Part shown: piece after piece, positions 1 to 40,720 of the stretch
Numbering within the stretch: the stretch's first letter is position 1
Layout: each line of letters begins with the position of its first letter
Source of the DNA: an uncultured bacterium
GTDB taxonomy: Bacteria; CSSED10-310; CALFER01
Length of the DNA stretch: 64,000 nt
Direction of reading: 5' to 3'
Assembly (NCBI GenBank): GCA_964472395.1
Contig: CAYYMM010000001.1
Span: forward strand, 36,069 to 100,068
The notes under the pieces: model-generated
What the model was told of the DNA's origin: nothing
The model's input: only the letters and a program-made list of their open reading frames with translations
Databases searched by the model: none
Translations under genes and position numbers: made by a program

Positions 1-965
1 ATGGAGCCGCGTTGTTGCCTGACGGGCAGGCTTACATCTGCGGCGATCTCGGGAAAATCTACCACTTCGACGGCACGGACTGGATCGACATGCCCACCGG
101 AACCTCGACGACACTCAAAGACATCGACATGCTGAGCCCGGCCCGGGGCTGGGCGGTCGGTCTGTACGGCACCGCCCGGGTCTTCAACGGGACAAACTGG
201 CTCTATTACAGCTCGTCCACAACCCGGTTTCTGCGAAAAGTCAGCGGGGTGACCGACTCGTGCGCATGGGCCGTCGGAGATCTCGGCACGATCGTCCGCT
301 GGACCGGATCGGGTTTCCAGACCGAAACGTCGCCGACCACCCAGACACTGTACGGCGTCGTCGCAATCTCGACGGACGAAGCCTGGGCCGTCGGAGATGC
401 CGGAACCGTCATCCATCGCCTCTCGGGTGTCTGGTCTGTCGTCTCAGTCCCGGAAATCCCCGCCACGGTATCACTCAGGGGAGTTGCCGAGGAGGACAAT
501 GGAGACATCATTATTGCAGGCGTCAACGGATTCATCATCCGCTTCGACGGCTCCACCTGGGAGCGTCTCGATGAGGATCTCTCGAACGGCATCGATTTTT
601 ATGACGTCGAAATCGCTCCGGACGGTGACATTCTGCTGGCCGGTACCCGGGGCAAACTGTTCGAGTATTCCGGAGGGGATTTTCTTCCCATCGACATGTC
701 CACCACGAACGATCTGTACAAGGTATACCGTGATCCGTACGATACGATGTGGGTTACCGGCAAAGGTGGAGTGATCCGGAAAAACACCGGATCCGGCTGG
801 ATCACCCAGAATACGTCGAATCCCGACAATGTATACGATATTTATGCTCTCTCTCCGACGAATGTTTGGACCGCGGGCGGATATTCCGACGGATCCTGCG
901 TCGGATGGACGGTGCTTCATTACACAGGCTCGCAATGGGTGGTCTATACTGAAGGAGGCTCCTGA
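1..965 (+). CDS. Beta-propeller repeat protein (Ycf48/BNR-like blades, repeated ..AWAVGDxGTIxRxxGxxW.. motif). 5' end lies outside the window. Ends at an in-frame TGA and is in the same frame as the next ORF.
   Basis: ORF track 12..965, with the reading frame open back to base 3. About seven ~45-aa repeats, each with a conserved G-x-x-G...W blade motif. TGA at 963..965. Confidence 0.6.
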   Translation, partial: GAALLPDGQAYICGDLGKIYHFDGTDWIDMPTGTSTTLKDIDMLSPARGWAVGLYGTARVFNGTNWLYYSSSTTRFLRKVSGVTDSCAWAVGDLGTIVRWTGSGFQTETSPTTQTLYGVVAISTDEAWAVGDAGTVIHRLSGVWSVVSVPEIPATVSLRGVAEEDNGDIIIAGVNGFIIRFDGSTWERLDEDLSNGIDFYDVEIAPDGDILLAGTRGKLFEYSGGDFLPIDMSTTNDLYKVYRDPYDTMWVTGKGGVIRKNTGSGWITQNTSNPDNVYDIYALSPTNVWTAGGYSDGSCVGWTVLHYTGSQWVVYTEGGS

Positions 966-977
966 CCGGGACCAGGG

Positions 978-2198
978 ATGCTGTTCAGCATCCGCCCGTT
1001 CTCGAATACCGATGTCTGGACCTGCGGCGATTACGGCAACATCCGACATTTCAACGGCTCTTCCTGGACACTCGAAACCATGCCGACTCTCACTACCCTC
1101 AACGCCATCGACGGCGTCGCGACGAATGATCTCTGGGTCGCCGGCAGCAGCGGATTCATCGCCCATTACGATGGATCAGTCTGGACGCAAGTCAGCAGCG
1201 GCATCACGGACGATATCCAGGATCTTTTTGTCGTGAGCACCGACGAAATCTACGCGGTCGCATACAGCGGAAAAGTGCTGCGATACACCGGCATCAAATG
1301 GGATATGTACCAGTCTCCATCGATCGGGGATTTCGAAGGGTTTGCGCTCGATCCGGATTCCGATACCGCCCTGACCTGCGGTCTGGCCGGTGTCTTCATG
1401 GAACTGGATCTTACGTTCCCGACTCCGACCGCGACACCGGACATCACCGCGACCCCATCTCCGGGATCGACGTCGACACCGGCACCGACCGCACCACCCA
1501 CCTCGACATATACAGCTGCACCGACGTCGACCCGAACCCCCACACCCACCCGGACGCCGACCGGCACGATATCCCCTCCTCCTCCAACCGTCTCGCCGAC
1601 TCCACCTCCGCCGACCGCGACAGCCAGCGCCACGGCGACACGAACACCGACCGCAACCATTCCTCCAACCGCAACACCGCAACCGCCGACCGCAACGCAA
1701 ACCGCAGAGCCGACCGGCACTCCGACATTCACACCTGAGGCGACCCAAACGCCTGAACCGGCGACACCCACCTTCAGTCCGACGGCCATGCCGACCGGGA
1801 CACCGACCGACGGTCCGGTTCCGACGGAAACGCCGCTGCCGGATCGATCCTTCACGCTGATACTGGACGATCGCGATCTGGCTGCCGGAGACCGTTTCAA
1901 CCTGCATTTTGAACTGGTCAATCGGTCCATGCCGGCCTGTTCTGCGGATGTATATATCCTTCTGGACGTAATGGGCCAGTACTGGTTCTGGCCGTCCTGG
2001 GTGTCAGACCGCGAAGGCTCGGACAGCCGGCGGTATAACGTGCCGGAAAACGGACGTGTGGACGAAGCGGCGCTGTCGTTCGACTGGCCGGCGGGAACGG
2101 GATCAGGAACGGGGCTTCTGTTCTGGGGTGCGATGTTCGATGCGGGAACCTGGAATCTGATCGGGAACATTCAGCGGATCGAGTGGTCGTATTCCTGA
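978..2198 (+). CDS. Continuation of the beta-propeller repeats, then a ~140-aa Pro/Thr-rich linker, then a conserved ~115-aa C-terminal domain shared with two other proteins in the window. No signal peptide of its own.
   Basis: ORF track. Same frame as 12..965. Repeats DVWTCGDYGNIRHFNGSSW and LWVAGSSGFIAHYDGSVW. PT linker at about 1413..1841. C-terminal domain 1842..2198 is homologous to 37278..37634 and 58733..59086. Confidence 0.6.
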   Translation: MLFSIRPFSNTDVWTCGDYGNIRHFNGSSWTLETMPTLTTLNAIDGVATNDLWVAGSSGFIAHYDGSVWTQVSSGITDDIQDLFVVSTDEIYAVAYSGKVLRYTGIKWDMYQSPSIGDFEGFALDPDSDTALTCGLAGVFMELDLTFPTPTATPDITATPSPGSTSTPAPTAPPTSTYTAAPTSTRTPTPTRTPTGTISPPPPTVSPTPPPPTATASATATRTPTATIPPTATPQPPTATQTAEPTGTPTFTPEATQTPEPATPTFSPTAMPTGTPTDGPVPTETPLPDRSFTLILDDRDLAAGDRFNLHFELVNRSMPACSADVYILLDVMGQYWFWPSWVSDREGSDSRRYNVPENGRVDEAALSFDWPAGTGSGTGLLFWGAMFDAGTWNLIGNIQRIEWSYS

Positions 2199-3767: not shown

Positions 3768-4362
3768 ACTATTGGATGGAGCTGTCGGCGATCAAGCGTA
3801 CCCGGGAGCGGGCGGCTTGCTGGCGCGCGCGGTAACCGGTTGATTTTTCTTTGAATCCTTCGGGGATCCGGAGTATACTCGGAAACTCCAGGACCATTCC
3901 GCGCGACAACGGGGAGGTTGGATTGAGCGATTTTTTCCGGGCGTGCATGCCAATTTCGGTCATGAAGAACGCGTGCAGCGGTCTGTCCGAACGCCCCGAT
4001 GATTCGACTCGATCCAGCTATTGGGGTAGTCTCGATCGACAGTTCCATCCGTTGTGGAATGCGGCTGTTTTGGAGCCTGCGCACCGTTTTTTGTCACTCC
4101 ACGAACGCAATTTTGTCAATCCGAACGGGTTGAAAAGGGGTGTGGCGATTCTTACAATGGAAGGGTCGGTATCGAGCGCGGGGGGGCATCGCGGCTATAT
4201 GGTTGAAAAATCGGGATTTTCGAAGAATTCGGGGTCGTTGTGTCGAATCGATCGCCCTTATCGATCACTTCGGAATGATTTTTGCATTTTACCGTGTGCT
4301 TTGAGGGGAGCAGAATCCCTTTTTTCGTGTTCACCCAACCTAACCTTATGGGAGGAAAATGT

Positions 4363-7300
4363 ATGAGGAAAGCGTTACTTTTTCTGACGGTTGCCATGAT
4401 GATGGCGACCGCGAGCTACGCGCAGACGGCTCTGCCATGGTCATGCGATTTCGCGACGGATGACTGCGGAGCGATCTACGAAGATGATGGCACTTCGTCA
4501 TCATGGGCTCGCTCCACCAGCAGCGGTTGCGCCGCACCAGGTATGTACCACGGTTACAACGGAGCCCACTATGACATCGATTATGTTGTCTGGGGGCCGT
4601 TCACAACCCCCACAGCGGATGTGGTCAGCCTGAGTTATGATCTGTCGATTTCGACTTGGGGCGACGAAGTTACAGTCATGTACATCACGAACCTGTATCT
4701 GGATCCCAACACCAATCCAGGTTCATGGATCGTGGCTGATGGGCCCTACTCGGCTTCAGCAGCCTGCGTCGCACACAGTGCCGATTTATCTGGTGTCCTC
4801 GGGTCAACTCAATTTTGGATCGCTTTCAGATACCAGGGACAAGACGCCTATTATGCTTATATCGACGATCTAAGCCTGACCTTCTCTTCTGGTCCGACCG
4901 CAACACCGACGAACACACCGGTTCCTGCTCCTGGACAGAATTGCGCCAGCGCAATCGCCATCAACATCCCCGGATCTCTGCCTTATTCACAGGCCGGCAC
5001 GAACTGCGGACTTCTGAACGACTATGCCGCAACCTGCCTCGGCAGCTATGACGGCGGCGAAGACATCATCTATCAGCTGGTTGTTGCAACAGACACGAAT
5101 GTTGAGATTTCATACACAACGACGGATACCTGGACCGGCATCCTTCTTGATGATTCCTGTCCTCCGGACCCGACAACGTGTATTGATATCGCAACAAGCA
5201 GTGCAGCCGGAACGATTACACTCGGTCAAAACCTCCTTGCTGCCGGCACCTACTACCTCATGCTCGACACCTATCCAACTCCGGACTGCATCTCCAGCTT
5301 CACACTCAACATCACGAGCGCTGGTGCTACAGCCACACCGACACCGACTGCGCCTCCGGCCGGCCCCGGCGATAGTTGCGGGAATGCGCTCCCGATCGCC
5401 AGCGGCGACTGTCTGCTCGGCGACTACACCGGCATGACCAACAACTTCGACTGCGGCGGCACCGGTGGCGTTGCTGGCGGCCCCGACATGGTCTACACCT
5501 TCACTCTCGCCGATTCCAGTTATGTTCACATCCTCGCCGAATCCGCCGGGGATATCGACCTTGCAGTGAGCAATGTCTGCGATGCCTCCACGGCGACATA
5601 TCTCTGCGCCGATACATCAGGCAGCTCAACATCAGCCCAGACATCCTGCGGCGACACCATCACCCCAGGTACATACGGATTCCACACATTCTACCGCCTG
5701 CTTCCAGCCGGCACCTACTACATCTGGCTTGATTCCTATTCCGGTGAGCTCGGTGACGAATTCGCCATTGAAATGTTCGCAACACTTGAATCCGTCACAT
5801 GCGCCGGTTGCCCGATAGGTGGTACACCCGAAGGCGAACCGACCTGCGCGGCCGAATATGTGGATACCTTCAACGCGGGTTGTAACGCCGCCACACCGGT
5901 CTTCACAACCATCACGCCCGGAACGACGATCTGCGGCCAGACCGGTACCTACACAGTCGGAACAGCCAACACACGCGATACCGACTGGTATCAGATCACC
6001 GTTGCATCTGCGGCTGACCTGATCGTCGAAGTTGCAGCCTCGTTCCCCAGCACGACCCTGATCGTTCCGGCCGTTTGTCCGGTCGCTTCGATCCTGGCCA
6101 GTGGCTCGGATACTCGTTGTCCGGGTTCTTCGTACGAAGTGATCGCGACGGTTGCCGCCGGTGATTACTATATCATTGTGCTTCCCACTGTTTTCACGGA
6201 CATCCCCTGCGGCAGCGCGAGCCGGTACTGGATGGCGGTTACAACCGATGTTCCGTCGACACCGACACCGACACCGACTTCCTGCGCATCGTGCCCGCCG
6301 GGCGGCACTGCCGAAAACGAACCGCTGTGCGGTCCGGAGTACGACGATACATATAACGGCGGATGTAACTCGACTGTTCCCGTGTTCCAGACCATCACCA
6401 ACGGTCAGACAATCTGCGGCGAAGCAGGAACATTTACATTCGGCACCGACAACTATCGCGACACCGACTGGTTCGAGTTCACCCTGACGGAAACGTCGGA
6501 TGTGACGTTCTCGGCTTACGGTGATTTCCCGATTCTGGCCTGGCTTGCTGCAACAGAAGATTGTGTCAATTACGACTTCACGCAGTATGACGACGCCGAC
6601 ACATGCGAAACCGCGACAACCATCCGGTACACAATGCCTGCGGGCGATTACATTGCGATCGTAATGCCCAGTGTATTCGAAGGCATTCCCTGCGGTGTCA
6701 AGTACGTGGCAACACTGACCTGGGGTCCCGCTGCACCGACACCCACACCGACCGTCACTCCTCCGCCTGCTGGTCCTGGCGACACATGCCTCAATCCGAT
6801 CACCATCAATTGCGGCGACTGCGTGCTCGGCACAACCGTCGGGATGAACAACAACTTCAGTTGCGGTGGTCTCGGAGCCGGCCCCGATGTGGTCTACACC
6901 TTCACCCTGGCAGAACCTCAGACCATTCATATCATCGCCGAGAGCGATGAAGATCTCGATTTCGCGGTCACCGACGTCTGCGATGCCTCCACTGCCACCT
7001 TTGCATGCTCGGATCGCCTGGGCACACCTCCGGTGGCTGCGTCTTGCGGCGAAGCCATCACTCCGGATACCTGGGGATACTTCGACTACTCAGCAACAGT
7101 GGATGCCGGCACCTACTACATCTGGATCGACACCTACAGCGCCACTGGCGGCGGTGCCTTCGCTCTCGAACTGCTCTGCTCGGATCCTCCGTCTTACGTC
7201 CTGGAATGCCCGGCCACCTCTCAGCTCTCTCAGCCGGTCAACCCGCTGGATCTCGGATTCAACGGCTTCTCCTCCGATCTGGGCGGCGATTTCCGGTACT

Positions 7301-7806
7301 TCGATGATTACTCTGTGACCGATCCGGTTTGCTGGGTCAAGTTCTGGGGTCTCTACACAGCCGGAAACGACACAGACTTCACGATCGAATTCTGGACCGA
7401 CAACGCCGGACAGCCCGGCACCCTGACCAACAGCTATCCGATTACCGGCGCGACACCGATCGACACCACCTGGACTGCCTTCGGCTACCCGATCTATGAA
7501 TACTTCGTCGAACTGCCGACTTGCGAAGCACAGCTTGCCGGCTGGATCAGCATTCAGGGCGCGAGCAACGGTTCGACCTTCTACTGGGCCGTGAATTCGT
7601 CAGCCACCGGTGCGGATTGCTACGAGTATCAGGTATCCACCACAACGTGGACTCCGGATGTCTATGATCTCGCATTCTGCCTCGGCAATGCCGAACCCCC
7701 GACCCCGACTCCTCTGCCGGTTCCGACTTCCGGTCCGTTCGGCCTGGGCGTCATGATCTTCGCGATCAGCGCACTGCTCGGCCTGAGTGTTCTCCGGAAG
7801 AAGTAA
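4363..7806 (+). CDS. Large secreted multi-domain protein: signal peptide, N-terminal jelly-roll (MAM-like) region, then at least five PPC (bacterial pre-peptidase C-terminal)-like domains in two sub-families, C-terminal PT linker, single TM helix and RKK tail.
   Basis: ORF track 4282..7806. Start chosen at ATG 4363, 6 nt after GGAGGA (4351..4356). Signal peptide MRKALLFLTVAMMMATASYAQTA. Repeated modules GDSCGNALPIASGDC...AGTYYIWLD and CPIGGTPEGEPTCAAEY...RDTDWYQIT occur twice each. C-terminus ...PTPLPVPTSGPFGLGVMIFAISALLGLSVLRKK. Confidence 0.8.
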   Translation: MRKALLFLTVAMMMATASYAQTALPWSCDFATDDCGAIYEDDGTSSSWARSTSSGCAAPGMYHGYNGAHYDIDYVVWGPFTTPTADVVSLSYDLSISTWGDEVTVMYITNLYLDPNTNPGSWIVADGPYSASAACVAHSADLSGVLGSTQFWIAFRYQGQDAYYAYIDDLSLTFSSGPTATPTNTPVPAPGQNCASAIAINIPGSLPYSQAGTNCGLLNDYAATCLGSYDGGEDIIYQLVVATDTNVEISYTTTDTWTGILLDDSCPPDPTTCIDIATSSAAGTITLGQNLLAAGTYYLMLDTYPTPDCISSFTLNITSAGATATPTPTAPPAGPGDSCGNALPIASGDCLLGDYTGMTNNFDCGGTGGVAGGPDMVYTFTLADSSYVHILAESAGDIDLAVSNVCDASTATYLCADTSGSSTSAQTSCGDTITPGTYGFHTFYRLLPAGTYYIWLDSYSGELGDEFAIEMFATLESVTCAGCPIGGTPEGEPTCAAEYVDTFNAGCNAATPVFTTITPGTTICGQTGTYTVGTANTRDTDWYQITVASAADLIVEVAASFPSTTLIVPAVCPVASILASGSDTRCPGSSYEVIATVAAGDYYIIVLPTVFTDIPCGSASRYWMAVTTDVPSTPTPTPTSCASCPPGGTAENEPLCGPEYDDTYNGGCNSTVPVFQTITNGQTICGEAGTFTFGTDNYRDTDWFEFTLTETSDVTFSAYGDFPILAWLAATEDCVNYDFTQYDDADTCETATTIRYTMPAGDYIAIVMPSVFEGIPCGVKYVATLTWGPAAPTPTPTVTPPPAGPGDTCLNPITINCGDCVLGTTVGMNNNFSCGGLGAGPDVVYTFTLAEPQTIHIIAESDEDLDFAVTDVCDASTATFACSDRLGTPPVAASCGEAITPDTWGYFDYSATVDAGTYYIWIDTYSATGGGAFALELLCSDPPSYVLECPATSQLSQPVNPLDLGFNGFSSDLGGDFRYFDDYSVTDPVCWVKFWGLYTAGNDTDFTIEFWTDNAGQPGTLTNSYPITGATPIDTTWTAFGYPIYEYFVELPTCEAQLAGWISIQGASNGSTFYWAVNSSATGADCYEYQVSTTTWTPDVYDLAFCLGNAEPPTPTPLPVPTSGPFGLGVMIFAISALLGLSVLRKK

Positions 7807-8050: not shown

Positions 8051-10564
8051 CTAGCTGAACAATTCCGGTTGAACGGTCTCGGACTCATCACCGCCCATGT
8101 CACCGTTCTCATCACCGCGGTCTTCGCCGCCTTCACGTTCGACGACACGCGCCACCGCAACGATTTTCGCGCCTTCACGTGCGATGTCCTGCAGCATGAC
8201 ACCCTGTGTCGATCGGCCGATCGACCGGAGGCTTTCCATGTCGACCCGGATCCGGATCAGTTTCCCGTGCGATGTCACCATCAGAAACTCGTCGTCTCCG
8301 AACGATTGCAGGATGCCCATGACCGGGCCGTTTCGTTCCGTGATCTTCATGTTGATCAGGCCCTTGCCGCCGCGTGTCTGTGTCCGGTATTCCTCGATGC
8401 TCGTTCGCTTCCCGTAGCCGTTTTCGGAAACGGTCAGCATAAGAGCGCCTTCATAGAGCACTTCCATGCCGATCACATGATCGCCGGATTCCAGCCGGAT
8501 GCCGATCACGCCGCGCGTCGCCCGGCCCATCGGGCGCACATCGGTCTCTTTGAACCGGATGCTCATGCCCTGATGAGTCGCGATGAAGACGTCCTGTTCG
8601 CCCGATGTCAGGCGGACACTGATCAATTCATCGTCTTCATCGATGATGATGGCTTTGAGTCCTCCCGAGCGATTGGTGTCGTATTCGACGAGGGATGTTT
8701 TCTTCACGATGCCGTTGCGCGTGCCCATCATGATGAATTTGCCTTCTTCGAATTTCTTGATCGGCAGAATCGCCCGGACGTTTTCGTCGGATTCGAGCGA
8801 CAGGAGGTTTTTCAATGAACTGCCGCGCGCCGTCCGGCTGCCCTGCGGTAACTGATAGACCTTCAGTCTGTAAACGCGTCCCTTGTCGGTAAAGATCAGC
8901 AGGATATCGTGCGTGCCGGCGAAGATCAGATGTTCGGTGAAATCCCCTTCCTTAGGGATAATGCCGGTCGCGCCCTGCCCGCGCCGTTTCTGTGCTCGAT
9001 AGAGCGACAGCAGCGTCCGTTTCGCATAGTTTTCGTGCGTCACGAACACCACCATGTCCTCTTCCGCAATCATATCCTCATAGTCGATCTCACTGTCCGC
9101 ATCCAGAATCAGCGTCCGGCGCGTATCGCCGAATTTCGCCTTGATTTCGAGCAGTTCCGTCTTGATCAGATTCATCAGCAGTGCTTCGGATTCCAGAATC
9201 GCACGCAACCGGCTGATCTCTTTAAGGAGTTCAAGGTACTCCTCGCGAATCTTGTCGCGTTCGAGACCCGTCAGCCGCTGGAGTCGCATATCGAGAATCG
9301 CCTGTGCCTGAACCTCGGACAAGCCGAACTGCGTCTGCAGTCCGTTCCGGGCTTCCTCGACCGTTTTCGATCCCCGAATCAGCGTGATGACCGCATCGAG
9401 ATGATCCAGAGCGATGATCAGGCCTTCCAATATGTGCGCCCGGTCTTCCGCCTTCCGGAGGTCGTATCGGGTGCGTCTGACCACCACCTCCCGCCGGTGC
9501 AGAATGAAATGATCCAGCATTTTCTTCAGCGACAGCACTTCCGGGCGGCCGTTGACGAGCGCGACCATGTTGACGCCGAAATTGAGCTGCAACTGGGTGT
9601 GTTTGTATAGCTGGTTCAGAATCGCCTTGGCGATCTGATCCTTCTTGAGTTCGATGACGACCCGGATGCCTTCGCGTCCCGATTCGTCGCGAACGTCCGA
9701 GATTCCCTCGATTTTTTTATCCTTGACGAGTTCCGCGATTTTGGTGAGAAGATCGGCTTTGTTGACCTGATATGGCAGCTCGGTGACGATGATGTCTTCC
9801 TTGCCGGCCTTCTCACGATGCTCGATCACCGCCTGTGCGCGGATCGTGATGGAACCCCTCCCGGTCATGTAGGCCTGGCGGATCCCGTCTCGTCCGTAGA
9901 TCATCGCCGCCGTCGGGAAATCCGGTCCGGTGACGATCCGCATGATGTCGAGATCCGTGTTGTCGGGATTGTCGATCATGTGGATCAGGGCATCGATGAC
10001 TTCGTTCAGGTTGTGCGGCGGGATGTTGGTCGCCATACCGACGGCGATGCCGCTGGAGCCGTTGACGATGAGATTCGGGAAGGCGGCTGGCAGGACATCG
10101 GGTTCATGGGTCGTGTTGTCGTAATTGGGGACGAATGTGACGGTTTCCTTTTCGAGATCCCTGAGGATTTCCTCGGAGATCTTCGCCATTCTGACTTCCG
10201 TGTATCGCATGGCGGCCGGCGGATCGTTGTCGACCGATCCGAAGTTGCCCTGGCCGTCGACGAGCGGGTATCGCATGGAGAATTCCTGGGCCATTCGCAC
10301 GATCGAATCGTAGATCGCCTGATCGCCGTGCGGATGGTAATTGCCCATGACTTCGCCGACGACTTTCGCCGATTTGCGGTAGCCTCGGGTGGGGCCGAGA
10401 CCCATTTCGTGCATGCCGAACAGAATCCGGCGATGCACCGGTTTCAGACCGTCGCGGACATCGGGGAGCGCGCGCCCCACGATGACGCTCATCGCATAAT
10501 CGATGAACGCCGACCGCATCTGATCTTCAATATTGACAGGAATCTTGTTTTCCGGAATCAGCAT
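8051..10564 (-). CDS. gyrA: DNA gyrase subunit A
   Basis: 837 aa. Motifs [25 protein letters not shown] and active-site AAMRYTE. C-terminal beta-pinwheel repeats and an acidic tail. ATG preceded by GGAG. Confidence 0.97.
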
Positions 10565-10579
10565 GAGAAGCTCCTGGTG

Positions 10580-14174
<3,595 letters not shown>

Positions 14175-14180
14175 AGAGAA

Positions 14181-15284
14181 TCAGACGATCATCGGCATGA
14201 CGATCGCCAGATACCGTAGCTCAGATTCAATGCCCGGCCGGAATTCCACCGGCCCTGACGGATTGTTCACGCGGATCGCGACATCCTCGGCATCGATCGT
14301 TTTGAGCAGTTCCAGAAGATACGTGACATTGAAACCCACAGTGAACGGCTCTTCGGTATACGCGATGGGAATCTGATCGCGGGCTTCTCCGAATTCAGGG
14401 GTATTGGCGGAAATCACGAGCATGTTGTTCTCAATGTTCATCTTGATTCCACGCGCTTTGATATCGGAAAAGAGCGATACGCGACGGAGCGACAGCATGA
14501 GGCTTTCCTTGTTCACTTTAATGATCAGACGGCATTCCTTCGGAATGACGATTGAATAATTCGGAAACATGCCTTCGACCAGCCTGGATATAACCGTTTC
14601 GCAACCGACTTTGAACACGAGATGATTGTTGTTGATGCCGAAACGAAATTCCTCTCCTCCTGCTCCGACCATCCGTTGGATTTCATGGACCGCCTTCTGA
14701 GGGATGATGACCTCGAGCGGAGTCATATTGAGTGTATTCGGTGTTTCAACATAAGCCAGACGATGGCCGTCCGTCGCGATCATCCGAACCGCTTCGTCAT
14801 CCACTTTGAACAAGACGCCTCCGAGAACCCGCCGGTTCTCGTCGTGACTGACCGCGTAGACCACTTTTTTGGTCAGATTATCCAGCAGATCACCAGGAAC
14901 GATGGTGAGGTTGCTTTCGTCCACATCCGGAAGCTTCGGGTAATCCACATCAGAAGAGCCGAAAAGACGAAACTCCGAAGATCCGCAGGAGAGCTTGATC
15001 CAATTGTTCTCCTCGAGTTTGAACTTCACGAGATTTTCCGGAAGTTCTTTCAGGACTTCGTAGAGTTTTTTTGCCGATACGAGAATACTTCCTGCTTCCG
15101 GAACATCGCATCCGATGAGATCACGGATACCGACCTCGAGGTCTGTAGCGATGACTTCGAGATTGCCTGAGTTGGCTGTCAGTTTGACGTTGTTCAGAAA
15201 TGGGTTGGTACTGCGTCTTTCGATGATCGATTGAACCTTCTGAATACTGGTCTGAAATGCTGATTTTTCGATACTGAATTCCAT
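14181..15284 (-). CDS. dnaN: DNA polymerase III beta sliding clamp
   Basis: 367 aa. Three-domain clamp with an N-terminus typical of DnaN (MEFSIEKSAFQTSIQKVQSII...). Confidence 0.95.
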   Translation of the reverse strand: MEFSIEKSAFQTSIQKVQSIIERRSTNPFLNNVKLTANSGNLEVIATDLEVGIRDLIGCDVPEAGSILVSAKKLYEVLKELPENLVKFKLEENNWIKLSCGSSEFRLFGSSDVDYPKLPDVDESNLTIVPGDLLDNLTKKVVYAVSHDENRRVLGGVLFKVDDEAVRMIATDGHRLAYVETPNTLNMTPLEVIIPQKAVHEIQRMVGAGGEEFRFGINNNHLVFKVGCETVISRLVEGMFPNYSIVIPKECRLIIKVNKESLMLSLRRVSLFSDIKARGIKMNIENNMLVISANTPEFGEARDQIPIAYTEEPFTVGFNVTYLLELLKTIDAEDVAIRVNNPSGPVEFRPGIESELRYLAIVMPMIV

Positions 15285-15770
15285 GATTGATCCTCCGGAA
15301 ACTTATCTGGTCATGTATAGCAGAAATCAGATGCGAAGTAAATGAAATCGTGCGTTTTTTTCTCTTCCCCGTCCACTCTCCGAAGAAGCTTCTAAGATAT
15401 GAAAATGGAGAGTTCATCGAAGTAGTCATAGAGGCTGTCGATAAGTTGAAAAGTGACTGGACTGATTGAAAATCAATCTTTTTTATCGCTCATAATTGTT
15501 CGCAAGTCTTACTGTTTTACTCCGGGTTGTGCACAAATCATCATCATTTTCGAACGTGTGTCGTTATGCACATGTTGTGAACGGGTTATTGACATCACTC
15601 TGTTGAAAATTTGATTAATGCATTCTGAAATAATACTGTTTGTCTCGGTCGCGACAGGAGGTCATTTTTTTCTTGACACGATATTTCAAGTGTTTGCGAG
15701 ACATTGTTTACGCACAGAGTTATAGACAGATGTTTATTGTTAAATTAAATATCTGAATAATAACACTTTA
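15285..15770. promoter_or_regulatory. AT-rich intergenic region upstream of dnaN. Candidate oriC and dnaN promoter region, with DnaA-box-like 9-mers.
   Basis: GC content drops sharply relative to flanking DNA. Near-consensus DnaA boxes TGTCGATAA, TTATGCACA, TTGTGCACA, TTATTGACA and TTATAGACA. AT-rich candidate unwinding tract taaattaaatatctgaataataaca. The position upstream of dnaN is classical for bacterial origins. Confidence 0.45.
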
Positions 15771-26300: not shown

Positions 26301-26466
26301 CTTTGTCGCCGGCGAATTGACATCCGGTCTGCCGAACATCGAGACGGTTGTGCCGACACCGACTCCGCCGCCTCAGGTGCCTGCATCGAGCCCCGCCGGT
26401 CTGGCCGTCATGATCATCATGATTTCGGTCCTGATCGGTTGGAGTCTTGCCCGCTCGCGCAACTGA
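23371..26466 (+). CDS. Secreted protein with four lamin-tail-domain (LTD) repeats, a conserved N-terminal domain, PT linkers, a C-terminal TM helix and basic tail
   Basis: 1031 aa. RBS GGAGG 8 nt upstream. Signal peptide MKGRSILSLAALLMFFAAAAHG. LTD signatures begin IIINEVDSD...FIELYDGG, IKINEVFVNSPETDIHCFVELYYPGG, IKINEIFVDP...WMEIINTSD and IKLNEVYINPPGTDVGCFVELYFPGG. C-terminus ...VPASSPAGLAVMIIMISVLIGWSLARSRN. Confidence 0.8.
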   Translation: MKGRSILSLAALLMFFAAAAHGQTIARWDFEDENLIVDEGSGTLARIGGGAVSYVTGNPGRAVTSNNYPTAASPDATNCWQINISTLSFFDIFLSFDETRSSTGIRAFQVFYSIDGGSNYTAAAPATTVPDDSLWRSQSIDMSAISEIENAASVILQIRPYSAEATTGTWRLDDILISQGAPAATSTPTSPSATNTPTPTNTTGGPTSTPTNTPPSSSSIIINEVDSDTLGTDVAEFIELYDGGTGNTSLNGHVVVLFDGSTDTSYRAIDLDGYTTNAQGYFVIGSTGMGTPIEISPGGSGWLQNGADAVAVYLGHDTAFPSGTAVTTTNLVDALVYDTDDADDAGLLDLLNASEPQINENINLNKDTESMQRCPNGTGGARNTSTYTLLATTMGVENTCVIPPTNTPANTPTPTNTSGGPTDTPTVTPTNPPISAIKINEVFVNSPETDIHCFVELYYPGGNLSLNGYSLVGVNGNGGADYVTIDLSTYSIPADGFFVIAQDTGVANYDMIAASVDMQNGPDSIQLRAGAVVVDAMGYGNFSSAVFAGEGTPCPIIPPEYSYSRIPDGEDLDDNVVDFFIGDLTAGLPNVEAVVPTATPTGSTPVPTNTPTSSGPTNTPTITPTSGPIPPIKINEIFVDPVSLDDDLEWMEIINTSDSPVDVTDVIIQSTTATGQVYTDRVILPALIIPANGYLLVAESLVDVTSVPGTTVIYQPTSPDLDIDMQNGSSHTEGVRIVTGAHDVIDTVIYSNPNEPDLIPGDEPGDPYGEHFALRPLSGNSLARCPDGQDTNLCDEDFIRRTTEYVTIGDINNCEVPTPTPTPTGPTPTPPPTSAIKLNEVYINPPGTDVGCFVELYFPGGMALTGYSIVGINGYDGSEYITIDLSTYSIPTDGYFVIAQDTSVANYDVIDTRINLQNGPDSIQIKYSGVVVDAMGYGDFTGMIFGGEGDPAPAYFTGPYSHSRIPDGDDTEDNLTDFVAGELTSGLPNIETVVPTPTPPPQVPASSPAGLAVMIIMISVLIGWSLARSRN

Positions 26467-26483
26467 TATCTGAATGATCCTGA

Positions 26484-26513
26484 AGCCCCGGACCTCGTCC
26501 GGGGCTTTTTTTT
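26484..26513 (+). terminator. Rho-independent terminator
   Basis: agccccggacctcgtccggggct followed by T8, 18 nt after the stop at 26466. Confidence 0.8.
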
Positions 26514-31425: not shown

Positions 31426-32889
31426 ATGAAAATACTGCTGATCATCCCGCCCGGCGGATACTATGCGGAACGATGGAGCGGAGGCGTGTTGATGCCGCCG
31501 CTCGGAATCGGATACGTTGCCGCATCGCTCGAAAACACCGCTCATGACGTTCGCCTGCTCGATGCCCACGTCGGAAGAATGACGGATCGTGACGTCCAAT
31601 TGGTAGTTGAAACCGAAAAACCAGATGTGGTCGGCTTGACATTCACGACAGAAAACCGTTTTGAGGCATTTGCGACGGCTCGCGCCATCCGTGAGGCAGC
31701 GCCCGGGTGTCATCTGACAGCCGGAGGCCCTCATGTTTCACTCGCCGCTCAGGATACGCTCGAGGGGGTGTCCGTCTTCGATTCGGTGGTGGCAGGAGAA
31801 GGTGAGATCACGATGGTGGAGCTGGCGGAAGCGCTGTCGACCGGCCGTGAGCAAGATCTGAGCAAAGTCGGAGGCCTCGTGTACCGCGATTCAGACGGCA
31901 TCATCCGGTCGAACCCAGGCCGCGAACGCATCATGGATCTCGATTCCATCCCCTTCCCAGCCCGCCACCTGTATCCTCCGATGTCGGAATATCATTTTCA
32001 GTTCGACGTACCGGGAAAGGGTATCCGGCAGTTCTCGAATCTGATGACCAGCCGCGGCTGTCCCTGCGCGTGCAATTTTTGCGCGACCCCGAAGGTGTGG
32101 GGTCGTCAGGTTCGGATGCGGTCGCCTGAGAACATCATGTCCGAGATCGATCTGATGGTGGAGCGGCATGGCGCGCAGGCGTTGTGGTTTTTCGACGATA
32201 CGTTCAATTCGTCGCCCAACCGCGTCCGGAAGCTGTGTGCGATGATCCGTGACCGGCAATACGACCTTCCGTGGTTCTGTGAGGTTCGGGTCGATCAGAT
32301 GTCAAAGGAATTACTGGCGGAAATGCGCGAGGCCGGCTGTTACACGATCGGGTTCGGGGTCGAATCCGGCTCGCAACGCATCCTCGATGATGTCGTCGGA
32401 AAGCACCTCAAGCTGGAAAAAGTGCATGAGTTGTATGAATGGTGCCGCGAGTTGGATGTGATTGCCAATCCATTTTTCATTCTGAGTCACCCGACCGAGA
32501 CCTGGGAAGAGGCGCGATTGACGATCGATCTGATTCGTAAATTTAAGGAAGGCGCACAGGTGTCGATGGCGTTCATGCATGTTTATCCCGGCACGGAACT
32601 CGAACGTGAGGCCCGTCGGATCGGCACGCTGCCATCGGATTTCAAATGGCATCAGGATGGCCGGACAGACGTGAAAACCCTCCCGTCGGCTCAAGGGAAT
32701 GTCCCGATTTTCCTGGATAAACTGTCCTGGTCGCAGGTGTCGGATCTCTTGTTCGAGTGGGCCGAGATGCAGCATTATTCGGTTTGGAGGAAAATCCCCA
32801 AAGTGCTCCGATCCATCCGCTCGATCGATGATGTCAAACGGTATGGCATCATGGGTTGGCGTTATCTGCGGAGACGGCTTTCTCTGTGA
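31426..32889 (+). CDS. Cobalamin-binding radical SAM enzyme (class B), paralogue 1
   Basis: 487 aa. N-terminal B12-binding Rossmann-like domain (MKILLIIPPGG...) and radical SAM cluster motif TSRGCPCACNFCATP. Confidence 0.8.
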   Translation: MKILLIIPPGGYYAERWSGGVLMPPLGIGYVAASLENTAHDVRLLDAHVGRMTDRDVQLVVETEKPDVVGLTFTTENRFEAFATARAIREAAPGCHLTAGGPHVSLAAQDTLEGVSVFDSVVAGEGEITMVELAEALSTGREQDLSKVGGLVYRDSDGIIRSNPGRERIMDLDSIPFPARHLYPPMSEYHFQFDVPGKGIRQFSNLMTSRGCPCACNFCATPKVWGRQVRMRSPENIMSEIDLMVERHGAQALWFFDDTFNSSPNRVRKLCAMIRDRQYDLPWFCEVRVDQMSKELLAEMREAGCYTIGFGVESGSQRILDDVVGKHLKLEKVHELYEWCRELDVIANPFFILSHPTETWEEARLTIDLIRKFKEGAQVSMAFMHVYPGTELEREARRIGTLPSDFKWHQDGRTDVKTLPSAQGNVPIFLDKLSWSQVSDLLFEWAEMQHYSVWRKIPKVLRSIRSIDDVKRYGIMGWRYLRRRLSL

Positions 32890-32948: not shown

Positions 32949-35060
32949 ATGCATCTCGATAATCTCTCCGGAATGCAGATCCGCGAATATCGTGTGATCG
33001 AAAAACTCGGTCAGGGCGGAATGGCGACGGTGTTCAAGGTCGAGCATGTCTTGTTGCGCACGTTTCGCGCGATGAAGGTGATCCGACCGGTCAAGAACCA
33101 AGATGCGCAGTATGTTCTGCGTTTCGAGCGCGAAGCTCGTGTACTTGTCAGCCTCGACCACATCAACCTTGTGCGCGTCTATGATTTTTTTCAAGAAGAG
33201 GGGTGCCTGTTCCTGATCATGGAATATGTGCCCGGTGAGAGCATGGAGGTGCGGCTGCGAAGAACACATGTGTTTTCGGCACGTGATGTGATCGAGATTC
33301 TCTCGCAGGCCTGCGAAGGCTTGCATGTCGCTCATCAAGCCGGCATCGTGCATCGCGATCTGGCGCCGGACAATCTCCTGATCATGCCGCTTTCCGATGG
33401 GTGTGAACGAATCAAGGTCATTGATTTCGGCATTGCAAAGGATGTGACTGAGAGTCAGACGGATGGGCTGACCGTGATGGGCAAATTTGTCGGTAAACTG
33501 GCGTATTGTTCACCGGAACAGGCTGCCGGAAACGCGCTGGATCAACGCAGCGACATCTATTCATTGGGCTTGGTCGCCCATCGAGCCTTGACGGGACGCA
33601 TCCCGTTCCATCCCAAATCCCCGTTCGAAGCACTCGCCCTGAGGCAGGTTCAGGATGCGCCGACGCTGTCGGAAAGCCGACCGGATGGACGATTCCCGGA
33701 CAGGTTGGAGGCAGCCGTGGCGCGAGCGCTCAAGCGAGATCCTCGTGAACGGTTTCAGCGTGTGCTGGAGTTCCGGGATGCACTGCGCGATGTCATGGGT
33801 GAATGTGAGGCGGCGAACGAAGACACTCAGTTTCGTACCACATCGAAAGCGGCGAAACAGATTCCTGGATCAGAGTCGCTGTCCGACCGGATCGAGCCCG
33901 ACGGGACTGACGATCGGACAATCGAGGGGCAACGCGCCGCCGTTCCGATCGAAGTGGATCTGGATCGCCTGGAGACCTCGGTTCGCGATTTCCCCTGGGG
34001 TATCTTCATTGTGATTGCTCTGGCTGTTGCCGCATTCGTAATCGGCTGGTATCAAATCTCACACTACGGGAAGCAGGCGCCGACGATGCCGATACCGCCG
34101 ACGATTTCTGTTTCGTCGCCGACTCATACGATGACGCCTGAAGACACCGAGACACCCTTGCCGACGATGATGGATACTCCGACCATGACCCCGGAGCCCC
34201 TCCCGGAAACCCTTCCCATCCAGACTCAATCTCCCGTCAACACTCGACCAGAACCGACGACCGCCGACTCAGACCGAACTCTTGCGATCGTGAAGGCAAC
34301 CGCTGAGGCTGAAAAAGCCCGCTGGGTCTCTGCTCCCACAGACGTGCCGTTGGCGCGGATCGCGCACGGCGCGGTCGTGATCGGCAGTGATCCCGATGAA
34401 CCCGGGAGGCGCGATGACGAATCGGTTTGGGCGGTTGGAATCAGCAGGGATTATCAGGTATCTGTCACCGAAGTGACTCAGGCCCAGTATCTTGCGGTCA
34501 TGGGCCACAATCCCAGCCGGAATAAAGGGCCGGATTATCCCGTCGAGAGTGTCACGTGGTTCGATGCGCTCCGGTTCTGCAATGCGCTGTCGATCAAGCA
34601 GGGGATCAAGCCGGCCTATGAGATCACGAAGGATGGAGATAGCATCGAGGTGAGCTGGCTGCCGAATTCCAGCGGATACCGTCTGCCGACCGAGGCGGAA
34701 TGGGAAACGGCGGCGCGTGCCGGCAGAAAGACGCCATTTACGGTCGGGGGCAGGCTCACACAGGGGCACGCGAATTTCGACAATCCTTCCGGAATTAAAA
34801 CAGTGCGCTGTTACGAACCGAATGCGGCCGGGATATATGATGTCGAAGGGAACGTGCGGGAATGGTGTTGGGACGGGTATGGCGAATATGGAACCGAGCC
34901 AGTGACCGATCCGTCGGGACAAGCGGCTTCATCGCGGAGAGTGGTGCGGGGCGGGAGTTTCCGAACGAAGATGGAGGGATGCCGGCTGGCGGGGCGGGAT
35001 TCCGAGGAGGCGGGGAAACGTTCCGACGACATCGGATTCCGGGTGGTGCGGAACCCGTGA
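32949..35060 (+). CDS. Ser/Thr protein kinase fused through a TM helix and PT-rich linker to a C-terminal FGE-sulfatase (formylglycine-generating-enzyme family) domain
   Basis: Kinase motifs HRDLAPDNLL and DFGIAK. TM helix GIFIVIALAVAAFVIGW. FGE-family motifs VTWFDALRFCNALS, GYRLPTEAEWE, NVREWCWDGY, RVVRGGSF. Confidence 0.85.
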   Translation: MHLDNLSGMQIREYRVIEKLGQGGMATVFKVEHVLLRTFRAMKVIRPVKNQDAQYVLRFEREARVLVSLDHINLVRVYDFFQEEGCLFLIMEYVPGESMEVRLRRTHVFSARDVIEILSQACEGLHVAHQAGIVHRDLAPDNLLIMPLSDGCERIKVIDFGIAKDVTESQTDGLTVMGKFVGKLAYCSPEQAAGNALDQRSDIYSLGLVAHRALTGRIPFHPKSPFEALALRQVQDAPTLSESRPDGRFPDRLEAAVARALKRDPRERFQRVLEFRDALRDVMGECEAANEDTQFRTTSKAAKQIPGSESLSDRIEPDGTDDRTIEGQRAAVPIEVDLDRLETSVRDFPWGIFIVIALAVAAFVIGWYQISHYGKQAPTMPIPPTISVSSPTHTMTPEDTETPLPTMMDTPTMTPEPLPETLPIQTQSPVNTRPEPTTADSDRTLAIVKATAEAEKARWVSAPTDVPLARIAHGAVVIGSDPDEPGRRDDESVWAVGISRDYQVSVTEVTQAQYLAVMGHNPSRNKGPDYPVESVTWFDALRFCNALSIKQGIKPAYEITKDGDSIEVSWLPNSSGYRLPTEAEWETAARAGRKTPFTVGGRLTQGHANFDNPSGIKTVRCYEPNAAGIYDVEGNVREWCWDGYGEYGTEPVTDPSGQAASSRRVVRGGSFRTKMEGCRLAGRDSEEAGKRSDDIGFRVVRNP

Positions 35061-37715: not shown

Positions 37716-39254
37716 CTAAGAATCTGCGGGATGCTTGCCAGTGAGATCGAACAGAATGACCGAAACACCGATGAAGCTACGTTCTTCGATTTTTTCGTAT
37801 CGGGTCTCCAGCCATTCCAGGACTTTCTTGTTGTGTTGCGTGTAAAAATCGACACATCCGTCCAGTTCGAAACACCAGTCAGTTTTGTAGACCCAAAGTC
37901 GTTGATGCGAATCGAGCCATTCAGGGGCCAGGTTTGTGGAGCGCACTTCGGGGTACTGCTGCACGATATCGTCGAGATTGAATTTGTGGATCAAATCCTT
38001 CCGATACTCGTCGTCGATGTCGAGGAAGTATGCGGGAGGAAACTGATTGAGATACACGAGATAGTACCAGACGGGAAACGTGCCACTTTCACAGGTTGTT
38101 CCGATGATATCTCCGGGCAGGAATTGTGTATCGATCCATCGGGATGCTTCACGAAATTCCTTCCGGGGCTGTATCTGCGAACGCATGCCGCTTTTGTAAT
38201 CGTTCCGATAATGGTAACTCAGCGTGAAGGCGTGAATCATGGTCAGAGCGGACAAAACGAAGATGGTGAGTTTTCGTGACCCAAACCTGTTGATTCCGTG
38301 TGCAATCGCAATCAGAAATGGCGCGAGAGCGAAGATGGTGTATCGAGGGACGAAGATGCAGGTCGGAAGAAGCAGCGATGTGAGCAAGGCGAGGCTGACA
38401 GGAATGATTCCTGCTGCGATCAGATAGTGTTGAAGAACAGGCTTCTGCCGGTCCAGGATTCCGAACAGCGCCGCCGAAGCACAGGCGAGACCTACTGTGA
38501 TGTAGACGATACGGGAGGCTTCATACCCTGAGCTGTACACCGACACAAGCTCCCAAACCGTTCGGATTGACACCGGCGGACACCAGAATGTCGCGGTGAT
38601 GATCCCTTTTGAAAGTGTGAAGAAACGGGCCAGGTAAGGAGCAAAAAAGAGAGACAGAAGGGTGCCAGCCAGCAGACTTCGCTTCACTGCGATTTTGAAG
38701 GGCAAAAACAGAAACAGGCCTAGGATCTGTCCGGCGAGAAAGAACAGAGAATAGTAATGGGTGTAAAGAAAGGCGGTGTCAACGAGGATCCAGCCGGCGA
38801 GATCAATAGAAGAACCAGATTCAGTCCAGCGTACGAAAAACAGCCAGGAAAGCACGGCAAGCAGCAGCGCGAGAGAATACATCCGGAGTTCCCTGGAGTA
38901 ATAAACAGCAAACGGCGATACCGATAGCAGTAAAGAAGCAGTCAATGCGGTTCGATGCGTCGAGATGTGTAAGGTGAGAAAGTACAGAGCGGGGATTGCT
39001 GCAACTCCGAATATTACCGGTAATGTCCGGAGCCCGAATTCGGAAGTAAAAAACAGGAGCCATAGGTTTAGAAAGACATGAAAGAAAGGCGGATGAAACG
39101 ACCGACCAACCACACTGCTGTAAATGGATTCGGTTTCATCCATCCAGAACGAATAATCGCCGAGGCGATACAGTCTGAGTCCGATTGCCACTGTTGTGAT
39201 AACCGCAAGGAGTACAAGGGAACGTCGATATAAAGGAATCGATCTGTGGTTCAT
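37716..39254 (-). CDS. GT39/GT83-type membrane glycosyltransferase (ArnT / protein O-mannosyltransferase-like)
   Basis: 512 aa polytopic protein. N-terminal loop motif YRLGDYSFWMDETESIY is typical of lipid-linked sugar-dependent GT-C enzymes. Confidence 0.7.
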   Translation of the reverse strand: MNHRSIPLYRRSLVLLAVITTVAIGLRLYRLGDYSFWMDETESIYSSVVGRSFHPPFFHVFLNLWLLFFTSEFGLRTLPVIFGVAAIPALYFLTLHISTHRTALTASLLLSVSPFAVYYSRELRMYSLALLLAVLSWLFFVRWTESGSSIDLAGWILVDTAFLYTHYYSLFFLAGQILGLFLFLPFKIAVKRSLLAGTLLSLFFAPYLARFFTLSKGIITATFWCPPVSIRTVWELVSVYSSGYEASRIVYITVGLACASAALFGILDRQKPVLQHYLIAAGIIPVSLALLTSLLLPTCIFVPRYTIFALAPFLIAIAHGINRFGSRKLTIFVLSALTMIHAFTLSYHYRNDYKSGMRSQIQPRKEFREASRWIDTQFLPGDIIGTTCESGTFPVWYYLVYLNQFPPAYFLDIDDEYRKDLIHKFNLDDIVQQYPEVRSTNLAPEWLDSHQRLWVYKTDWCFELDGCVDFYTQHNKKVLEWLETRYEKIEERSFIGVSVILFDLTGKHPADS

Positions 39255-40720
39255 TTCTGGTTATTGGAGGAAAAACTTCCCTGGACGAGATACTTCCAGA
39301 ATTTCCGGAGTGATTTCAGTGTTCGTACGGCCTCGTCCGGCCTGGTCAGGATCTGCCGGAGCTTAAAGAGGATGTATCGCGGTCTGAGATAGAACTCGCG
39401 CCTCGCCCGGTCACAAAAGGCAACCAGTTGTGTATGACTGAGTTCCGGGCGATTGACGACGCAGTTGTGAAGACCTTCCGGTGTCAGCCAGCATGAGAAA
39501 TCGTTTGTTGCCAGATAACCACTCGACCGCGCCCATTCAAATGCTTCCGTTCCCGGATAGACCATCAGCGGGAAAAACTGGGCGGTATCGGTATTCAATT
39601 CCTTGGCAAACGCCAGTGTGGCCTCGAGAGTTTCTTCGGTTTCCTCGGGGAGTCCGACGAGATAACACCCGTGTACCATGATTCCCGCACGCTTCGCGTC
39701 CCGGACAAACCGTCGGCTCTGTTCGAGGGTCAGTTTCTTGTTCATCCGATCCAGGATCGTCTGACTGCCGCTTTCGAATCCGACACACAACAGGCGGCAT
39801 CCTCCCTTTTTCAACCATTTCAGCGTTTCAAAATCGACATCAGCCCGCGAATTCGCAGTGAACCCGATACGAATCCCGCGTTCGATTTTTCGTCGCATCA
39901 ATGCCTGGCAACGGACCGCGTCCAGCGTCATCGCATCATCCTCGATGAAAAGCTCGCGAACCCCCTCAAAATGAGTCTCGACGAATTCCCATTCATCCAG
40001 AACCTTCTCGATGTCCCGGAACCGCACCCGTCTGCCGGTCAGGTTCTGCGGATAGACGCAGTAAATGCAGTGATGCAGGCATCCCCGGCTGGTGATGAGC
40101 GTGACTTCGGGGTATCGGGCGATCGAGTAGAAATAATCCTTGAAATTCAGAAATTTTCGATAGACTTCCGCCACCATCGGCAGGTCATCGAGCTGTTCGT
40201 TGAGGGGGCGAGGAGCCGTGCGGATGATGTCGGAACCGAGGCGGAAAGCGAGTCCCGGAATGGTGCGCCAGCGGTCCCGAGGGTCGTGCAGGTGTCCGGC
40301 CAGTTCGCAGAGTGTCAGCTCATATTCGCCGATGACGACCGCATCCGCGGACGCATTCCCGCGGAGAGTCTCCTCTGGAACAGCCGAAACATGCACGCCA
40401 ACGAACACCGTGATCGTGTCCGGGCATGCTGTCTTGCACGCAGCTCCGACGGCCAGATCGTTCGCGATGCTCGGGGTCGATGTCGCGATCACGATCAGAT
40501 CGGGTTTGCTCCGCTCGACATGTTCCGCGACATGCCCGTGCGTCCAGTTCCGGGGCACGGCATCGATCAGTTCGACGTCGTGGCCATCTTGGATCAGAGC
40601 GCCGGCGGCGTAAGCGAGCCACATCGGGTAGTAGATTGTTCCGCTCTTGGTGACGGCCGGTGAGCGTTGTTCGCGTGAGAACTGCTGGAGGAACGGTGGG
40701 TTGAGACACAGAACTTTCAC
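39251..40720 (-). CDS. Cobalamin-binding radical SAM enzyme (class B), paralogue 2
   Basis: 489 aa. B12-binding N-terminal domain (MKVLCLNPP...GHDVELIDA) and TSRGCLHHCIYCVYP. Overlaps the GT39 gene by 4 nt. Confidence 0.8.
   Translation of the reverse strand: MKVLCLNPPFLQQFSREQRSPAVTKSGTIYYPMWLAYAAGALIQDGHDVELIDAVPRNWTHGHVAEHVERSKPDLIVIATSTPSIANDLAVGAACKTACPDTITVFVGVHVSAVPEETLRGNASADAVVIGEYELTLCELAGHLHDPRDRWRTIPGLAFRLGSDIIRTAPRPLNEQLDDLPMVAEVYRKFLNFKDYFYSIARYPEVTLITSRGCLHHCIYCVYPQNLTGRRVRFRDIEKVLDEWEFVETHFEGVRELFIEDDAMTLDAVRCQALMRRKIERGIRIGFTANSRADVDFETLKWLKKGGCRLLCVGFESGSQTILDRMNKKLTLEQSRRFVRDAKRAGIMVHGCYLVGLPEETEETLEATLAFAKELNTDTAQFFPLMVYPGTEAFEWARSSGYLATNDFSCWLTPEGLHNCVVNRPELSHTQLVAFCDRARREFYLRPRYILFKLRQILTRPDEAVRTLKSLRKFWKYLVQGSFSSNNQK

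Follow-up and report, generated by a model that had tools for sequence, protein, structure and literature searches.

An in-frame UGA followed by a SECIS-like hairpin points to a probable secreted selenoprotein with two beta-propellers in an uncultured bacterial lineage

In a 64,000-nucleotide stretch of DNA from an uncultured bacterium (assembly GCA_964472395.1, contig CAYYMM010000001.1, positions 36,069 to 100,068; hereafter the window), a beta-propeller gene is interrupted by an in-frame UGA triplet at positions 963-965, closely followed by a perfect hairpin. Does this UGA end a gene, does it result from an error, or is it decoded? A first reading of the sequence (the original prediction) had left three explanations side by side: a pseudogene or sequencing/assembly error, a genuine split into two genes, and programmed recoding. 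The comparison described here excludes the first, makes the second very unlikely and supports the third. The form of recoding that we consider probable is the insertion of selenocysteine (Sec) directed by SelB and a selenocysteine insertion sequence (SECIS).

Translation of the window bore out that the two open reading frames (ORFs) flanking the UGA lie in the same frame: frame 3 is open from base 3 until the TGA at 963-965, is directly reopened and ends at the TGA at 2196-2198, the ORF starting at the downstream ATG (978-2198) being part of it. The left ORF extends past the window start; in full it is the 435-amino-acid protein P0001, whose signal peptide and blades 1 and 2 are encoded to the left of the window. 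The AlphaFold2 model of this full upstream ORF (predicted local distance difference test score, 85.9) has exactly 10 four-stranded blades, and four more are encoded after the TGA, so the blade repeats do run on across the stop, as had been predicted. A product ending at the UGA would have a second propeller with only three of its seven blades. The downstream ORF, which begins with MLFSIRPFSNTD, lacks a signal peptide, again in agreement with the first reading. Frame and repeat structure indicate that the two ORFs are one gene, whose joined product would be a secreted protein of ~846 amino acids made up of a signal peptide, two 7-bladed Ycf48/BNR-like propellers, a Pro/Thr linker and a C-terminal domain. 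Foldseek matched the model to tandem 7-bladed propellers (the BT4663 periplasmic domain and Aip1) and to Ycf48 with E-values of ~1e-11. In the profile scans Pfam Rax2 reached 28.7 bits (cut-off, 28.8) and NCBIfam Ycf48 25.5 bits (cut-off, 326), and the precomputed PSII_BNR matches were faint. Judged from the model and these scores, the family appears to share the Ycf48/PSII_BNR (PF14870) fold class, and its members are probably no equivalogs of Ycf48.

When the joined propeller was used as query, a protein search yielded P0001 and nine orthologues (423-447 amino acids, 45-49% identity), and all nine orthologous upstream ORFs stop at the same residue, after the sequence Y(T/G/S)(E/D)SG(S/T). 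The nucleotide comparison was based on 12 loci, the window and eleven fetched loci, with assemblies taken from NCBI, ENA, JGI and Logan. TGA occupies this codon in all 12, which come from independent assemblies and share 45-50% protein identity between clades; none has a sense codon there. In the eleven fetched loci the TGA is followed, in the same frame and with zero insertions or deletions, by CCG GGN CCN GGG (A/T)(T/A)G CTG KTC AGC NTC. When 5.8 billion protein clusters were searched with a profile, at least 15 family members were detected, all split as ESG(S/T)-stop / (PGPG)MLVSIR, among them the more divergent pair P0397/P0395, which is split at the same place. Taken together, these alignments indicate that the UGA has been kept and is neither an error nor a gene boundary. 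The orthologues end where P0001 ends, as they would if the split were genuine; the independent downstream gene with a signal peptide of its own, which would belong to such a split, was not found. The downstream ORFs of the orthologues open with MLVSIRAF and have no signal peptide, yet they carry dockerin or secreted-type C-terminal domains.

The nucleotides between the UGA and the downstream ATG behave as coding sequence. They specify Pro-Gly-Pro-Gly in all 12 loci, with codon positions 1 and 2 fixed and the third variable (GGA/GGT/GGG/GGC and CCA/CCG/CCC). These 12 nucleotides evolve as codons, which indicates that they are translated. Blades 11-14 show as much conservation as the part encoded before the UGA.

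The perfect hairpin GGATGCT-GTTC-AGCATCC was present as predicted, at positions 976-993 and not 975-992, the coordinates given earlier being one base off. Its 7-bp stem starts at the 11th nucleotide after the UGA, and 17 nucleotides separate the UGA from the loop. The loop is GGUC in eight of the 12 loci and GUUC in four, including the window. Folding energies lie between -8.7 and -9.1 kcal/mol in nine loci (window, -9.1), and the stem variant in L003 is a U.G wobble. By itself the hairpin is weak evidence: among the 2415 TGA triplets of the window, 22 (0.9%) precede, by chance, a hairpin that has 7 bp or more, a loop beginning with G and SECIS-like spacing, and the z-score of the single-sequence fold of positions 955-1020 is 0, so that thermodynamics does not single it out. 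It is raised above chance because it is conserved in all 12 orthologous loci. The codon alignment of the 12 genes contains 77 columns in which the amino acid is invariant and its codons are degenerate. Only three of these columns use a single codon (+4 GGG, +6 CTG and +8 AGC), and they are exactly the columns of this kind within the stem; the chance of three single-codon columns all falling in the stem is ~1/C(77,3) = 1.4e-5. Glycine illustrates the contrast, as just one of its 30 invariant columns uses a single codon and the other 29 average 3.7 codons each. This codon pattern indicates that the hairpin is under selection at the RNA level.

A published model of bacterial SECIS elements specifies a loop of 3-9 nucleotides starting with G[G|U], a stem of 4-16 bp, a UGA-to-loop distance of 16-37 nucleotides and a minimum free energy of -7.5 kcal/mol or lower (PMC13188914). 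Nine of the 12 loci pass on all points, and L002, L007 and L008 fail the energy cut-off only; the SECIS-like spacing and geometry claimed in the original prediction therefore hold. The functional minimal 17-nucleotide SECIS derived from Escherichia coli fdhF is ggttgcaggtctgcacc (PMC3834832; minimal form of this type example, GGUUGCAGGUCUGCACC). The majority element of the family, GGATGCTGGTCAGCATCC, is identical to it at 14 of 17 bases, including the entire GGUC loop. In sequence and geometry the hairpin thus closely resembles a bacterial selenocysteine-insertion signal.

Nowhere is the protein more conserved than around the UGA (W.AGG..D..C..W......W..Y....-U-PGPG.L.S). This stretch includes Cys414, which is invariant in all orthologues and precedes the UGA by 22 residues. 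Blade 10 has two insertions. One, of seven residues (SDGSCVG), contains Cys414 at the tip of a long B-C hairpin and is absent from generic homologous blades; the other, of four residues, lies at the linker between strand D and the next blade and carries the UGA, at a position where generic blades usually have Ser in an S-P-T linker. The AlphaFold2 model predicts strands at 402-410, 415-422 and 427-434, the last two forming an antiparallel hairpin. Because the register of this predicted hairpin puts residue 414 opposite 435/436, a Cys414-Sec436 pair is plausible. Sec436 would then sit beside Cys414 on the extended blade-10 hairpin, on one face of the second propeller, and the two residues could form a selenenylsulfide or a joint metal- or substrate-binding site. 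It had been objected in the original prediction that the Gly/Pro-rich context does not resemble a selenoprotein active site. The context is as described, and the objection is weakened by the conservation of the flanks and by the invariant upstream Cys. U-P contexts have precedents among catalogued selenoproteins (UPGQ, UxP and DxxUP; PMC13188914). In three clades the strand opposite to the propeller gene carries, upstream of it, a class-I pyridine-nucleotide disulfide oxidoreductase gene (Pyr_redox_2 + Pyr_redox_dim, ~465 amino acids) (L148, 5398-6783; L002, 137-1549; L006, 1322-2728), and a functional link between this enzyme and the Cys/Sec site is possible.

How well can the UGA be explained without Sec? 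A pseudogene or an error at 963-965 is what a single in-frame stop would suggest at first sight in a repeat protein that is continuous apart from it. The recurrence of the same TGA in 12 independent assemblies, with both halves under purifying selection at ~45-50% identity, refutes this explanation, and its probability is close to nil. Even less credence is due to a genome-wide reassignment of UGA to sense (code 4 or 25), for which nothing speaks beyond the in-frame UGA itself. As the original prediction held, UGA is a normal stop elsewhere: TGA ends 23 of the 32 well-supported genes of the window, being their commonest stop, and GyrA, GyrB, DnaN and other proteins are full length under the standard code. 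Because UGA is otherwise the main stop, it is not reassigned in the code of this genome, and this explanation is refuted as well. A more serious proposal is that of two translationally coupled genes, in which ribosomes would terminate at the UGA, melt the hairpin that masks the AUG at 978 and reinitiate there, and the two chains would assemble into a split propeller. Every gene caller divides the locus in two, an AUG within the 5' arm of a hairpin is the classic arrangement for coupling, and the ATG is present in 10 of the 12 loci. However, L008 has TTG and L007 AAG at this position, and in L007 the gene caller placed the start 60 codons downstream, within a conserved blade. Furthermore, the Pro-Gly-Pro-Gly "spacer" is codon-like and invariant as protein, the frame and the 12-nucleotide spacing are constant, and the downstream chain has no signal peptide despite its dockerin or secreted-type domains. 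A GGAG-like Shine-Dalgarno (SD) motif occurs at -6 to -15 in 13 of 20 well-supported window genes; none was found in this interval before the ATG at 978, the only such motif there lying at -23 to -25. Nor do the upstream signal peptides, as we read them, have a consistent twin-arginine (Tat) motif, which makes co-export of a folded complex unlikely. Tested as an independent gene, the downstream ORF therefore fails for want of a start in L007, a usable SD motif and a signal peptide. The missing signal peptide, the missing start in L007, the constant frame and the codon-like spacer make an independent downstream gene very unlikely, and we rate coupling in the same way.

The remaining alternative is programmed readthrough independent of SelB: the hairpin and the weak UGA-C context would slow termination and let a near-cognate Trp, Cys or Arg tRNA decode the UGA, producing a short and a full-length form. 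The conserved UGA, the translated downstream region and the selected hairpin fit this mechanism equally well. It also accords with the base following the UGA, which is C in all loci, and with the fact that neither Sec machinery nor a Cys homologue was shown. On the other hand, the hairpin reproduces the SelB-binding consensus in its G[G|U] loop and its spacing, besides the 14 nucleotides shared with the E. coli element. If a standard amino acid were inserted, UGG, UGC or CGA would be expected to have become fixed in some of the at least 15 lineages, and none has one of them. The short form, with its incomplete second propeller, is unlikely to fold. For these reasons readthrough of this kind is improbable, and decoding of UGA 963-965 by SelB/SECIS-directed Sec insertion is the explanation that we hold to be probable. 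By this mechanism the ribosome would pause on the UGA and the in-frame hairpin would serve as a bacterial SECIS; SelB-GTP-Sec-tRNASec would bind the G(G/U)UC loop and deliver Sec, and translation would proceed through Pro-Gly-Pro-Gly into blades 11-14. SelB and Sec are here the inferred acting factors.

A number of observations weigh against Sec insertion. Searches of the 64-kb window, of its 10-kb upstream flank (L148) and of the fetched loci detected no selA, selB, selD or tRNA-Sec gene. The search covered 30 window ORFs (Pfam), the upstream flank and, with ARAGORN, 11 sequences; it agrees with the earlier statement that the window has no sel genes, and the window contains no tRNA gene either. 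Among the 5.8 billion protein clusters no fused and no Cys-containing orthologue was found, and Cys homologues exist for almost all accepted selenoprotein families (PMC12013277), a criterion that is customary and not a mechanistic requirement. The stem is weakened in L002 (-7.2 kcal/mol), in L007 (-4.7 kcal/mol, A.C mismatch) and in L008 (-4.8 kcal/mol, U.U mismatch). In the 12-sequence alignment no base pair has changed on both sides, because four of the seven pairs never vary, and the helix is supported by conservation only, not by compensatory covariation. Rfam returned nothing relevant, either for the window at the gathering threshold or for three orthologous loci at E<=10, and it appears to have no model that captures so short an element. 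The fold is not thioredoxin-like, and CxxU and UxxC motifs are absent. The placement of residue 414 opposite 435/436 is an inference from strand register in a model of the truncated protein, in which coordinates were not measured. A 2026 review catalogues 119 prokaryotic selenoprotein families and subfamilies in its Table 1 and lists no beta-propeller, BNR or Ycf48-like family (PMC13188914); mentions of propellers or BNR are also absent from the BSepDB paper, a 2022 review and the deep-Sep paper, and WD40 is named neither in the two reviews nor in the BSepDB paper.

The question of Cys counterparts was also approached through more distant relatives. Of the matches from genome and metagenome scans, only three loci were orthologous, namely L010, L011 (L001's genome) and L064 (L007's contig); the remaining matches were distant propellers with 22-39% identity, many of them from Poribacteria. 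Among 683 high-scoring segment pairs with distant blades, Cys stands at the equivalent linker position in only 21, in scattered blades that lack the insertions typical of the family; Ser is commonest there. A search with the downstream 150 amino acids was dominated by giant multi-blade proteins and was uninformative on Cys forms. When 143 loci were screened for PGPG preceded by Cys or a stop, orthologues only were found, and S-PGPG occurs in one blade of L135/L139. The distant 14-blade propellers P0013-P0015 have a conserved Cys-rich sequence, CWEC(Y/W)GPGLPDPCRN, directly after the signal peptide, which superficially looks like U-PGPG-ML. As a Cys counterpart, the segment CWEC(Y/W)GPGLPDPC at this N-terminus was rejected, since it occupies a different position and no alignment supports the equivalence.

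No further candidate selenoprotein, that is, a second in-frame TGA with a SECIS-like hairpin, was found in the window or in the clade loci. At 26464-26512 the TGA that closes the gene of a 1031-amino-acid LTD-domain protein precedes a hairpin with 7 bp or more and a 9-nucleotide loop, and this TGA is in frame with the next gene, which encodes a methyltransferase (TTG start at 26512). Probably the two genes are ordinary neighbours, and the hairpin arose by chance or is terminator-like.

Considering the evidence as a whole, this secreted double beta-propeller is most likely a selenoprotein that had not been catalogued before. That it founds a family of selenoproteins whose fold is non-redox and for which current sequences hold no Cys counterpart, in which a secreted, dockerin- or anchor-bearing double propeller displays Sec436 and Cys414 on a protruding hairpin, is a further step toward which we lean with less assurance. 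Extracytoplasmic selenoproteins have precedents in the catalogue, such as the substrate-binding proteins SaoX/SaoB, a TonB-dependent receptor and an MtrB/PioB-like barrel (PMC13188914). Thioredoxin-like or metal-centre enzymes make up nearly all of the ~119 families in the catalogue, and very few families are without Cys homologues; if confirmed, the propeller would be a structurally new family in the prokaryotic selenoproteome, and an uncultured lineage would be shown to use Sec. It would also imply an extracellular role of selenium that sulfur cannot fill, for example in a selenenylsulfide switch or in chalcogen or metal capture. For comparing selenium with sulfur beyond the classical redox enzymes, a secreted scaffold whose surface bears an obligate Sec would be well suited. 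For annotation the family is a warning, as in all public gene calls its halves stand separately, one as a "hypothetical protein" and the other as a "dockerin type I repeat-containing protein". The features of the gene are collected in Table 1.

Table 1. Features of the propeller gene in the window (all positions refer to the window)
Feature	Position	Strand	Remarks
5' part of the gene	1..962	+	Residues ~116-435 of the 435-amino-acid P0001; blades 3-10; 100% match to P0001
TGC codon of the invariant Cys414 of P0001	897..899	+	22 codons 5' of the UGA; proposed partner of the Sec
In-frame UGA, proposed Sec codon (U436)	963..965	+	TGA at the identical codon in 12/12 loci
CCG GGA CCA GGG (Pro-Gly-Pro-Gly)	966..977	+	Earlier taken as intergenic spacer; read here as translated
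SECIS-like hairpin	976..993	+	5' arm 976-982 GGAUGCU; loop 983-986 GUUC; 3' arm 987-993 AGCAUCC
Blades 11-14, predicted to complete the second 7-bladed propeller	966..1400	+	From translation and alignment
Pro/Thr-rich linker	1401..1841	+	From translation
C-terminal domain, ~115 amino acids (FTLILDD...IEWSYS), and true stop TGA 2196-2198	1842..2198	+	

The C-terminal module is exchanged between clades. In the window, L003 and L008 it comprises a Pro/Thr linker and a domain of ~115 amino acids (FTLxLDD...YILL.V.G.YWFWPSW...), and the downstream ORFs of other clades (L001, L002, L006, L007 and L146) have dockerin type I repeats instead. The same 115-amino-acid domain terminates an unrelated protein with a signal peptide in L147 (20523-21749) and so has the look of a domain for sorting or anchoring that is specific to the lineage. 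In Pfam and NCBIfam scans the downstream ORF bearing it had no significant family match. Another secreted protein of the window (4282-7806, 1174 amino acids, no Pfam match) consists of repeated Cys-containing modules with PTPTP linkers, and its end, a hydrophobic segment followed by RKK, resembles a membrane anchor or a sorting signal at the C-terminus.

A response regulator gene and an Hpt gene are located just downstream of the propeller gene in five loci. The dnaN, recF, gyrB and gyrA genes form a cluster at 8051-15284 on the minus strand of the window, the usual neighbourhood of a replication origin; dnaA is not adjacent to dnaN, and a gap of 486 nucleotides (15285-15770) is followed by an ATP-grasp gene. 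In L001, too, gyrA/gyrB are found close to the propeller gene, and L002, L007 and L008 have them on the same contigs as that gene. The propeller gene is absent from the locus around gyrB (L147) in a 2.97-Mb contig of the same lineage. GyrB of the window (10580-13021) has ~27 relatives with 64-98% identity and at most 57% identity to the nearest named phyla (Nitrospirota, Acidobacteriota and Desulfobacterota/Geobacter), which marks a deep lineage. Farther along the window, three genes for B12-binding radical SAM proteins (31426-32889, 39251-40720 and 45141-46508) are interleaved with two sulfatase genes (43366-45144 and 47629-49740) and methyltransferase genes. The same cluster contains a Ser/Thr kinase to which an FGE-sulfatase (formylglycine-generating enzyme-like) domain is fused (32949-35060). 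This unusual combination possibly serves sulfatase maturation or the modification of lipids or glycans.

Known proteins that come close in fold are Ycf48/HCF136 and tandem propellers such as BT4663 (PF14870; PDB 5ojr, 2xbg and 4a2l, the last for BT4663), with which the family shares the fold and the blade repeat W-A-V-G-D-x-G-T-I-x-H-x-x-G-x-x-W. Unlike the Ycf48/HCF136-type proteins, the family protein would have 14 blades in two propellers, is predicted to be secreted, ends in a dockerin or other C-terminal domain and has no link to photosynthesis, and the two insertions with Cys414 and the UGA codon are specific to its blade 10. The UGA readthrough of the phage Qbeta A1 protein is similar in that an in-frame UGA precedes essential coding sequence. 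However, the signal in Qbeta does not consist of a SECIS-like hairpin whose G[G|U] loop lies at a fixed distance, and both Qbeta products are functional, whereas the short product of the propeller family would be a broken propeller.

The hairpin was also compared with the E. coli fdhF SECIS. Both elements are located within the ORF directly 3' of the UGA and have a short upper stem with a 4-nucleotide GGUC loop (GUUC in the clade of the window). The family stem starts 10 nucleotides after the UGA; the E. coli stem is said to start 11 nucleotides after it, a value that reportedly goes back to Liu et al. in 1998. The family element differs in its loop-closing pair, which is flipped (U-A instead of A-U), and in having no conserved lower stem containing the UGA. 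The position that corresponds to the bulged U of the E. coli element is paired (A-U) in most family loci and is the site of the U.U mismatch in L008 and of the A.C mismatch in L007. Compared with the catalogued selenoproteins, the family stands apart in its fold, which is not thioredoxin-like, in the lack of CxxU and UxxC motifs and in having no known Cys orthologue, which is rare; GrdA is the usual example of a selenoprotein without a Cys-containing homologue. It agrees with them in its single in-frame UGA, its SECIS-like element within the ORF, the conserved flanks of the putative Sec and a conserved Cys as possible partner.

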